From: Staphylococcus phage SapYZUs7
Strand: one strand, 5' to 3'
Sequence record: OQ828659.1
DNA length: 43,682 nt
This document shows positions 1,302 to 2,006 of this stretch, piece by piece (positions within the stretch are counted from its first letter, which is position 1; each line of letters begins with the position of its first letter). Both the position numbers and the translations under genes were made by a program. The notes under the pieces were generated by a model. That model worked only from the letters and a program-made list of their open reading frames with translations, was not told the origin of the DNA and did no database searches.

Positions 1302-2006
1302 TTATGATAAAATGTTAGCTTTCATAAAATCTTCTATAATTTTTAAAGTTTCTTCATTGAAAGATATATGGCCAGTTGGATCGTAATCATTAAGTGTGCT
1401 TATTCTTTTTTTACTGATAGTGATAACTTGAGATGGAATTGCATAAGTTTGTTTGCCTACAAACCTTTCGTAACGCTCAATTATTTTTGCGAGTTGCATA
1501 TAATTATTTTCAATCTCATCAAGTTCTTTTTCGATTGCTGAATTTAAGTTTTTTACTTTTGTGGATCTTGCGTGCATTTCTTTTATTCTATCCAAATCGA
1601 ATCGTAAAGTTTTGTGGTCAGTTTTCATTTTTTCTAAAGCTTTTAGTATTAAATTCTCTTGTAATTTTAAAGAAAATTTGGTGTCTTTTGAAGTAAGTGG
1701 AACTATAGTAATTAGCTCATTGCGTTTGTTGTCATTTTTATTTAAAACGACGCAAAAATGATTCCCTGAGAATTCAGAACCAATGTTAACACCAAGTTTA
1801 GCGTATACAATAGTACCTCTTGGATACACTTTAAAGTTTTTTTGGTTAGTTAAGGTTGTTTCATTTTTAAAAATTATTGATTTTGTAAAAAGCCAGTCAT
1901 CCAAATATTTAAATTTGAATTTTCCGCTATTGCAAACCTCTTCAAAGTTATTTACAGCTTTTAATATTTTATCTTTGCTACTTTTTTTGGTGGAATTTCT
2001 TTCCAT
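1302..2006 (-). CDS. Atypical MazF/PemK-fold protein (234 aa) with a ~58-aa N-terminal extension and ~60-aa coiled-coil insertion
   Basis: Segment PRGTIVYAKLGVNIGSEFSGNHFCVVLNKND...LITIVPLTSK aligns to the MazF/Kid core (RGDVY..L.P..GSE..G.RPvVi...ivvPiTs). A later SQVITISKKRIS...FNEETLKIIEDF segment resembles the MazF C-terminus. Strong SD gaggagg. Confidence 0.6.
   Translation of the reverse strand: MERNSTKKSSKDKILKAVNNFEEVCNSGKFKFKYLDDWLFTKSIIFKNETTLTNQKNFKVYPRGTIVYAKLGVNIGSEFSGNHFCVVLNKNDNKRNELITIVPLTSKDTKFSLKLQENLILKALEKMKTDHKTLRFDLDRIKEMHARSTKVKNLNSAIEKELDEIENNYMQLAKIIERYERFVGKQTYAIPSQVITISKKRISTLNDYDPTGHISFNEETLKIIEDFMKANILS

Follow-up and report, generated by a model that had tools for sequence, protein, structure and literature searches.

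Sma, listed as FS_Sma in DefenseFinder, is described in the literature as a MazF-like "single-protein" anti-phage system with a prototype in the Staphylococcus aureus pathogenicity island (SaPI) SaPIpT1028. Sma has already been tested for phage defence and is classed as an accessory defence gene. Its source is reportedly Fillol-Salom et al. 2022 (Cell 185:3248). Reports of FS_Sma cover 26 genomes of cultured phages as well as prophages of S. aureus, and sma has been located in nuSa-alpha of strain RN4220 (PMC12829572). Here, we describe a related gene in a 43,682-nucleotide stretch of Staphylococcus phage SapYZUs7 (OQ828659.1), referred to in its full length as the window. Judged by homology, the 234-aa product of this gene is a prophage-borne new allele of the already described Sma family and not an orphan oddity. 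A structured small-RNA (sRNA) gene lies directly downstream of sma on the same strand, and this arrangement is conserved.

Other described systems bear on the locus as well. The abortive-infection RNase toxins of type III toxin-antitoxin systems (ToxIN, AbiQ/antiQ, CptIN) have a Kid/MazF-related fold, and antiQ consists of 2.8 repeats of about 35 nt. Sau-63 (RF02394) is a ~100-nt S. aureus sRNA that was Northern-validated in N315 "SaPIn2", the island called nuSa-alpha here. It is also expressed in USA300, with 16-fold higher levels in serum, and no function is assigned to it in the accessible literature. Phage 80alpha carries tha-1, a HEPN defence gene transcribed from the cI promoter in lysogens, whose product is an RNase-type abortive-infection effector (PMC11087260).

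The connection to Sma was drawn through the prototype island. In SaPIpT1028 (AY954948), only one open reading frame (ORF) matches the family profile, namely ORF005, which encodes 265 aa and lies immediately downstream of int. As the only MazF-like ORF of that island, ORF005 is regarded here as the prototype Sma. A family hidden Markov model (HMM) built without ORF005 matches it at 246.5 bits, and BLASTP aligns it with residues 21-227 of the window protein (E 3e-34, 31% identity). The initial annotation had missed that the family has been named already. Both proteins are homologous over their full length, share the same four-part architecture, and have no protein antitoxin. Both genes also sit beside int on a staphylococcal mobile element, with expression expected in the integrated state, and both are followed by a -10 box, hairpins, and a terminator. 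Unlike the prototype, the window protein has a shorter insertion; its gene lies upstream of int on a Sa3int prophage, whereas the prototype lies downstream of int on a SaPI, and the downstream RNAs differ in sequence. The member at the left end of nuSa-alpha, flanked by guaA and the ssl cluster, has 234 aa and is 40% identical to the window protein, with 1,352 member sequences.

The family itself is large. A search of 1.84 billion cluster representatives (50% identity clusters) with a full-length profile returned matches to 1,168 of them at E<=1e-3 and to 172 at E<=1e-30. With so many representatives matching, the interrupted architecture described below is not a chance assembly. The 150 matches listed are mostly 200-326 aa long and matched over their full length. 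Shorter members of 168-177 aa (family HMM E about 1e-42 to 1e-47) occur in metagenome-assembled genomes of uncultured Bacilli (loci L053, L057, L059, L060, L063, and L065-L069). Staphylococcus and Streptococcus phages repeatedly show the same-strand order repressor (sometimes with an ImmA-like protease), sma, and int, and the family is typically found at the integrase end of the repressor operon in Bacillota prophages and satellites. The "immunity" gene orf203 of phage Sfi21 occupies the same slot and was considered as a homologue; it was rejected, with an hhalign probability of 0.1%, and orf203 encodes a CD20-like membrane protein.

Several lines of evidence agree on the fold of the window protein. 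The initial annotation had proposed a MazF/PemK fold extended at the N-terminus and interrupted by a helical insertion; the ORF that it gave exists, although its position on the minus strand had been left unstated. Pfam PemK_toxin (PF02452) matches from residue 63 with 37.9 bits, against a gathering cut-off of 23.1 (E 2.2e-9), and phrog_1412 matches over the full length (E 1.2e-72). An AlphaFold2 (AF2) model built from a 15-sequence alignment, with a mean predicted local distance difference test (pLDDT) score of 81.6, shows an interrupted SH3-like barrel of the MazF type. It places N-terminal helices at residues 5-26 and 35-49 (pLDDT about 65-70), beta-strands at 65-70, 82-87, and 98-105, a helical hairpin of 62 residues formed by helices 119-148 and 152-180 (pLDDT about 90), and a C-terminal part with a strand at 195-198 and a helix at 218-231. 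In a Foldseek search of the PDB with this model, the top 43 matches were all MazF, Kid, MoxT, or related toxin chains, with E down to 1.4e-5, a probability of 1.00, and a target-normalised template modelling score of 0.63-0.74. Full-length sequence searches of the PDB returned coiled-coil noise only, and MazF chains were matched only after the insertion had been excised. The resulting 22-member family-core profile aligns end to end with the MazF chains 7bxy and 4hke (E 0.007) and sets the TISKKR motif over TIDKQR of MazF. Together, model and profiles confirm a predicted MazF/PemK fold that is interrupted by a helical hairpin and preceded by a helical extension of ~58 aa.

Compared with canonical MazF/PemK/Kid toxins (S. 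aureus MazF, 4MZM; B. subtilis MazF, 4MDX), the window protein shares the fold and the motifs GxE, P-x-T-S, and I-(D/S)-K-x-R. Unlike them, it is twice the size, carries the helical-hairpin insertion and the N-terminal extension, has a His for the Arg of the "RP" motif, and has no MazE/PemI gene upstream. Conservation varies strongly along the family alignment, with a mean pairwise identity of 0.51 in the first core half, 0.37 in the second, 0.24 in the extension, and 0.15 in the insertion. Within the extension, K31 is conserved in 89% of 131 diverse members. The insertion ranges from 55 to 154 aa and is the fastest-evolving part. Hypervariable in sequence and length yet always present, it is easier to reconcile with a role in specificity or sensing than with that of a conserved inhibitory plug. 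The earlier suggestion of repurposing, for example into a sensor, agrees with the published account of Sma as a single-protein anti-phage system.

The putative active site combines conservation with one substitution. The MazF motif G-V-R-P aligns with G-N-H-F of the family, so that His83 stands in place of the Arg of the conserved "RP" motif. We equate this Arg with the catalytic residue Arg25 in B. subtilis MazF (R29 in E. coli) and, likewise, the Thr aligned to Thr105 with the catalytic Thr48 (T52 in E. coli). Among the 131 diverse members, H83, D92, P103, S106, and K199 are invariant, whereas G64, G72, G76, E78, S80, and S198 are at least 90% conserved (S198 in 95%). By motif count, position 105 is Thr or Ser in 163/164 family proteins. 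These alignments suggest an active site that is maintained but altered, with His for Arg and Thr/Ser at position 105 kept.

Downstream of the window gene, the sRNA aligns with the whole RF02394 model (positions 1-98 of 98) at 51.7 bits (E 4.5e-9). Since this score lies below the gathering score of 100, the RNA is regarded as a diverged relative and not as a curated sau-63 member. An nhmmer profile of staphylococcal sma-linked RNAs matches it at E 7e-17. The alignment with Sau-63 includes hairpin 1, the 3' hairpin, and the terminator, and both RNAs have the same position and strand relative to sma; at nuSa-alpha, the sau-63 match (128.1 bits) lies 32 nt past the sma stop codon. Unlike Sau-63, the window RNA has no middle hairpin, and its hairpin 1 is duplicated. 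The two 22-nt repeats (AUUUCCGGUAACCAAUCCGGCU) are 100% identical, spaced 31 nt, and each forms a CCGG-UAACCAAU-CCGG hairpin, a kind of repeat pair that appeared in 0/100 shuffles of the sequence. The terminator behind them, predicted from its stem GGCCAGATG/CATCTGGTC, ends the sRNA and any sma read-through, and it is kept in other staphylococcal sma loci.

All of the staphylococcal sma loci examined (14/14, SaPIpT1028 included) have a -10 box, short GC-rich hairpins, and a terminator after sma. Over 901,570 bases on both strands, the nhmmer profile gave 13 matches at E <= 6e-9, a number that includes two loci duplicating the nuSa-alpha and window copies. Every match lies 27-42 nt past a sma stop codon on the sma strand, and none occurs away from sma genes in these bases. 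A MAFFT alignment of the staphylococcal RNAs misaligned the small hairpins, so that RNAalifold detected no element but the terminator, and single-sequence folds were used instead. In Staphylococcus rostri (locus L006), two sma-family genes stand in tandem (4512..5192 and 5453..5950), with a B236-type repeat RNA after the first and a Sau-63-like RNA fragment, one of the 13 matches, behind the second.

The same layout extends beyond staphylococci. A -10 box, two short hairpins, and a strong terminator also follow sma in Gemella, Limosilactobacillus, Companilactobacillus, and Granulicatella, in Streptococcus phage 315.1, and in many uncultured Bacilli. The first terminator begins 55-140 nt past the stop codon in 52/66 sma genes and in 29/426 control ORFs, defined as other ORFs of at least 150 aa in the sma loci (odds ratio 51, Fisher p 3e-36); the loci had been picked for carrying sma and some are related, so these counts are not independent. 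In 25/25 related loci, a -10-like hexamer precedes the predicted RNA start by 5-12 nt, and 11 of these hexamers show the form TGnTAnWWT against a background of 2.7%. Most RNA groups consist of two tandem units, each a short single-stranded motif followed by a hairpin, and the repeat identity is partial in many loci.

Covariation was examined in one group of uncultured Bacilli, where minimum free energy (MFE) folding gives the same three helices for all of 15 distinct RNAs. The first helix (P1) combines an invariant base, AACAAA/UUUGUU, with an inner stem that varies, and a conserved single-stranded linker, (A/G)AU(C/U)AA(A/U), follows it. The second (P2), 4 bp long, exists in five versions, all fully complementary; when strands of different versions are combined, only 2/20 combinations remain complementary. 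Because the stems vary and yet stay complementary, the two hairpins appear to be maintained by compensatory changes. Rfam holds no family for the non-staphylococcal sma-linked RNAs. A covariance model of one group (R1) was significant in 885 kb for its own group only; cross-group matches were weak (E above 0.01), and several of them fall just after a sma gene. Weak extra matches (E about 0.03) in two loci, L017 (4334..4422) and L069 (7481..7552), lie a few hundred bases further downstream of sma and may be decayed second RNA copies. An IMG/VR scan with an RNA pattern gave 8 matches, which were all discarded as chance, being inside coding sequence with no sma nearby.

A mode of action by base pairing was considered for the sRNA. 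RNAduplex gave a mean z of -0.22 for pairing with the sma translation-initiation region, with z below -2 in 2/26 loci. In the absence of excess complementarity to the start region, a type I-like mode, with the sRNA as antisense regulator, is not supported. A "pemK RNA motif" was reportedly described by Weinberg et al. 2017; it is absent from the main text of that paper. No description of the sma-sRNA pairing was found in the accessible literature, and an earlier report may exist.

The window ORF is probably a Sma-family, MazF-fold anti-phage defence toxin that a Sa3int-type prophage carries as cargo in its repressor operon, at the integrase end. In the explanation that we favour, sma would be transcribed together with the cI operon in the lysogen, since the terminator scan of the window found no minus-strand terminator between cI and sma and since tha-1 of 80alpha provides a precedent. 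Sma would be a dimeric endoribonuclease, with His83 in place of Arg, that is kept inactive. A superinfecting phage would trigger it and cause growth arrest or abortive infection, and the variable insertion, possibly together with the extension, would set the specificity for the trigger or partner. The abundant two-repeat sRNA would then serve as a neutralising or regulatory partner of Sma. Direct binding of the protein by the RNA is suggested by the two repeated units that adjoin the gene for a dimeric RNA-binding fold.

More tentatively, and at somewhat below an even chance in our judgement, Sma across the Bacillota could represent a two-part module formed by a MazF-fold toxin and a co-evolving two-hairpin RNA that silences the toxin dimer. 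Sau-63 and its relatives would in that case be made from their own downstream promoter and act as a type III-like RNA antitoxin for a genuine MazF/PemK protein. The resemblance to ToxIN, AbiQ/antiQ, and CptIN would lie in a toxin beside a short, repetitive, structured RNA; there are only two repeat units here, of 31-41 nt, which are similar to those of antiQ. Unlike the type III toxins, Sma is a MazF proper, with Pfam and fold matches to MazF/PemK only and not to ToxN/AbiQ, CptN, or TenpN. Moreover, its RNA lies downstream with a promoter-like site of its own, not upstream before a leaky terminator. Because gene order and toxin family differ, the comparison is one of working principle and not of membership.

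An overlooked protein antitoxin, be it the 55-aa ORF, the cI-like repressor, or another small ORF, would make Sma a conventional type II toxin, in agreement with its place in Pfam PemK_toxin and with the HTH/XRE proteins found directly upstream in some phages, as such proteins can be antitoxins in other systems. We regard this as hardly credible. The nearest upstream ORF has the size and the distance from sma (139 bp) given in the initial annotation, but it is 98% identical to gp05 of 80alpha, a phage without sma in which gp05 precedes gp04 and tha-1. This identity marks the 55-aa ORF as a backbone gene of the operon and led us to reject it as antitoxin, in line with the earlier doubt about its partnership. 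As 80alpha has tha-1 behind it, the slot can be read as a defence-cargo site with the order cI operon, 55-aa ORF, defence gene, and int in both phages. Tha-1 is unlike Sma, however, in being an unrelated HEPN-domain protein with a protein inhibitor, Ith, encoded antisense, and the nhmmer profile found no Sau-63-like RNA in the 80alpha region searched. A neighbour analysis of genome loci from one scan together with phage loci gave 48 Pfam families upstream of sma among 66 loci, with an HTH domain in only 10/66 and an S24 domain in 8/66; downstream, 16 tyrosine integrases and 3 serine recombinases were found among 58. When ORFs of at least 25 aa within 600 bp were clustered over 70 loci, only integrases (16 loci) and repressors (14 loci) were shared, and no repressor lies right before sma in nuSa-alpha or SaPIpT1028. 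Neither the Pfam scan nor the neighbour survey found a co-transcribed upstream MazE/PemI-type antitoxin. Hence, Sma has no conserved protein partner, and the initial statement that no obvious antitoxin lies adjacent holds for proteins, whereas it overlooked the conserved sRNA gene directly downstream. A housekeeping or regulatory function for the phage, in integrase expression or lysis-lysogeny control, would suit a gene between the cI operon and int whose RNA terminator lies just upstream of the int promoter region. Such a function is very improbable, given that the cassette is missing from the otherwise near-identical Sa3int phages phiNM3 and StauST398-4, that the family also occurs in nuSa-alpha, a non-phage island without int, and that the literature counts Sma among accessory defence genes.

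The substitution of His for the presumed catalytic Arg in every member raises a different question, namely whether the fold is catalytically dead or repurposed as an RNA- or protein-binding module, or as a CcdB-like poison of another target; CcdB shares the MazF fold and has no nuclease activity. We consider this improbable, as the invariant His accompanies invariant or near-invariant Glu78, Ser80, Asp92, Ser106, and Lys199, a pattern of a maintained site and not of decay, and His is a competent general acid/base in many RNases. A further alternative, which we rate as rather unlikely although not negligible, is an autonomous single-protein sensor-effector. Here, the extension or insertion would inhibit the toxin in cis, a phage protein would switch it on, and the RNA would have no role in Sma control, being a structured 3' untranslated region, a terminator, or an unrelated sRNA. 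The published "single-protein" name speaks for it, as do the resemblance of the hypervariable insertion to a specificity module and the general need for terminators that insulate int. So does Tha, which occupies the same slot and acts as a protein sensor of tail proteins (PMC11087260). Set against this, the RNA follows sma where no int lies behind it, as in nuSa-alpha, at the end of SaPIpT1028, and for most of the 58 downstream neighbours. All 25 RNAs have their own -10 box at a fixed distance, compensatory changes preserve the two hairpins, and Sau-63 is a discrete Northern band of ~100 nt. Moreover, a plain terminator would normally start less than 55 nt past the stop codon, as in the control ORFs.

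Several points weigh against the explanation that we favour. For the protein, the identity to the prototype is only 31%, no family model of PADLOC 2.0.0 or NCBIfam matches the window Sma significantly, and defence, toxicity, and RNase activity of this allele are presumed from homology. Nuclease activity is not guaranteed either, because the presumed catalytic Arg of MazF is replaced by His83 in all 131 members. For the RNA, the Rfam score falls short of the gathering threshold, the promoter in the window is no more than a match to the consensus, divergence keeps a single model from linking the RNAs of different genera, and the locus counts carry the dependence stated above. The binding of Sma by the sRNA is purely what we infer, and the published "single-protein" name implies that Sma worked without a declared partner.

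As another prophage allele of a described defence family, the protein largely explains the original observation, and what deserves attention is that sma genes are regularly paired with a small structured RNA. Should the RNA be the neutralising partner, MazF-fold toxins would enter the world of RNA antitoxins, Sau-63 would gain its first function, and catalogues in which Sma figures as a one-gene system would have to add a non-coding second component. It would also explain how an "orphan" MazF is tolerated. The pairing offers a simple experimental handle on the silencing of the Sma family in lysogens. The features of the window are collected in Table 1.

Table 1. Positions of the sma-like gene, its sRNA, and surrounding features in the window.
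Feature	Position	Strand	Basis or remark
sma-like gene, 234 aa	1302..2006 (stop codon 1302-1304)	-	ORF call; ATG start; strong Shine-Dalgarno GAGGAGGATGAGGG
N-terminal helical extension, residues 1-58	1833..2006	-	AF2 helices; present across family
MazF core, first half, residues 59-116	1659..1832	-	Motifs GxNxGxExSGNHF and PLTS; His83 codon 1758-1760
Helical-hairpin (coiled-coil) insertion, about residues 117-183	1458..1658	-	AF2
MazF core, second half, residues 184-234	1305..1457	-	Motif TISKKR and C-terminal helix
Promoter-like site TTTACT-17-TATAAT	1268..1296	-	Predicted; consensus scan, 10/12 matches; just past sma stop, ~7 nt before RNA
Sau-63-like small RNA, two repeat hairpins and terminator	~1176..1261	-	Rfam, nhmmer, MFE fold
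Repeat copy 1, 22 nt	1236..1257	-	Repeat search
Repeat copy 2, 22 nt	1205..1226	-	RNA sense AUUUCCGGUAACCAAUCCGGCU; hairpin CCGG-UAACCAAU-CCGG
Intrinsic terminator	1174..1204 (9-bp terminator 1204..1181)	-	Stem GGCCAGATG/CATCTGGTC and T-run
Tyrosine integrase (int)	72..1133	-	Neighbour on sma strand
55-aa ORF, cI-operon backbone	2146..2313 from its ATG	-	phrog_1176; context only, not a Sma partner
113-aa ORF	2517..2858	-	phrog_6563, E 8e-65
DEDDh-exonuclease (RNase_T)/BRCT fusion protein	2864..3802	-	In cI operon
cI-like repressor gene	3812..4525	-	Pfam HTH_3 and Peptidase_S24
Promoter-like site of cI-like repressor gene	4548..4576	-	Promoter scan
rli28-like RNA	37807..37986	+	Rfam, 94.6 bits, above gathering score
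251-aa CHAP/SH3b ORF	38492..39247		Just upstream of sak/chp/scn immune-evasion cluster
sak	39438..39929	+	Pfam Staphylokinase
SprX	40226..40376	+	Rfam, 195.7 bits, above gathering score
chp	41009..41458	-	Pfam CHIPS
SprD	41843..41984	+	Rfam, 171.8 bits, above gathering score
scn	42143..42493	+	Pfam SCIN

Judged by its closest relatives and by the presence of sak, chp, and scn at its far end, the window appears to be an essentially complete prophage of the Sa3int type (hlb-converting). Over its first 6 kb, identity to S. aureus phages including phiNM3 and StauST398-4 is 99.6-99.7%, and these phages cover 84% of this part in two pieces without the segment 1134-2150. The matches listed for this cassette include no phiNM3, StauST398-4, or N315 record, and phage N315 has tarP in the place of window 1134-2150. 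Since the cassette is 99.8% identical in the Triavirus phage YMC/09/04/R1988 despite a different integrase there, it moves as a unit. The cargo of the int-proximal slot varies in related phages, with tarP in phage N315 and tha-1/ith-1 in 80alpha and phi11. As such differences occur among otherwise near-identical phages, the region behind the 55-aa ORF can be described as a cargo hotspot.

The region from the cI-like repressor gene to its promoter-like site (3812..4576, minus strand) is likely the start of a lysogeny operon that reads towards sma, and Cro-like and antirepressor genes diverge from it. Within this operon, the DEDDh/BRCT gene matches the PADLOC candidate defence family PDC-S48 (E 2e-26) as well as phrog_192 and may be a second defence cargo gene. 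The neighbouring 113-aa ORF matched no Pfam or PADLOC family. On the other side of sma, a second hairpin (GGGTAGCCCGCCTACCC, then a T-rich tail) occurs at 1144..1160 on the minus strand, just upstream of the int start codon. The surrounding stretch of ~50 bp (1134..1183) is ~94% conserved in many staphylococcal phages, whether they bear sma or not, and is probably an int leader or insulator element. At the opposite end of the prophage, SprX, SprD, and the rli28-like RNA lie near the lysis and immune-evasion genes.

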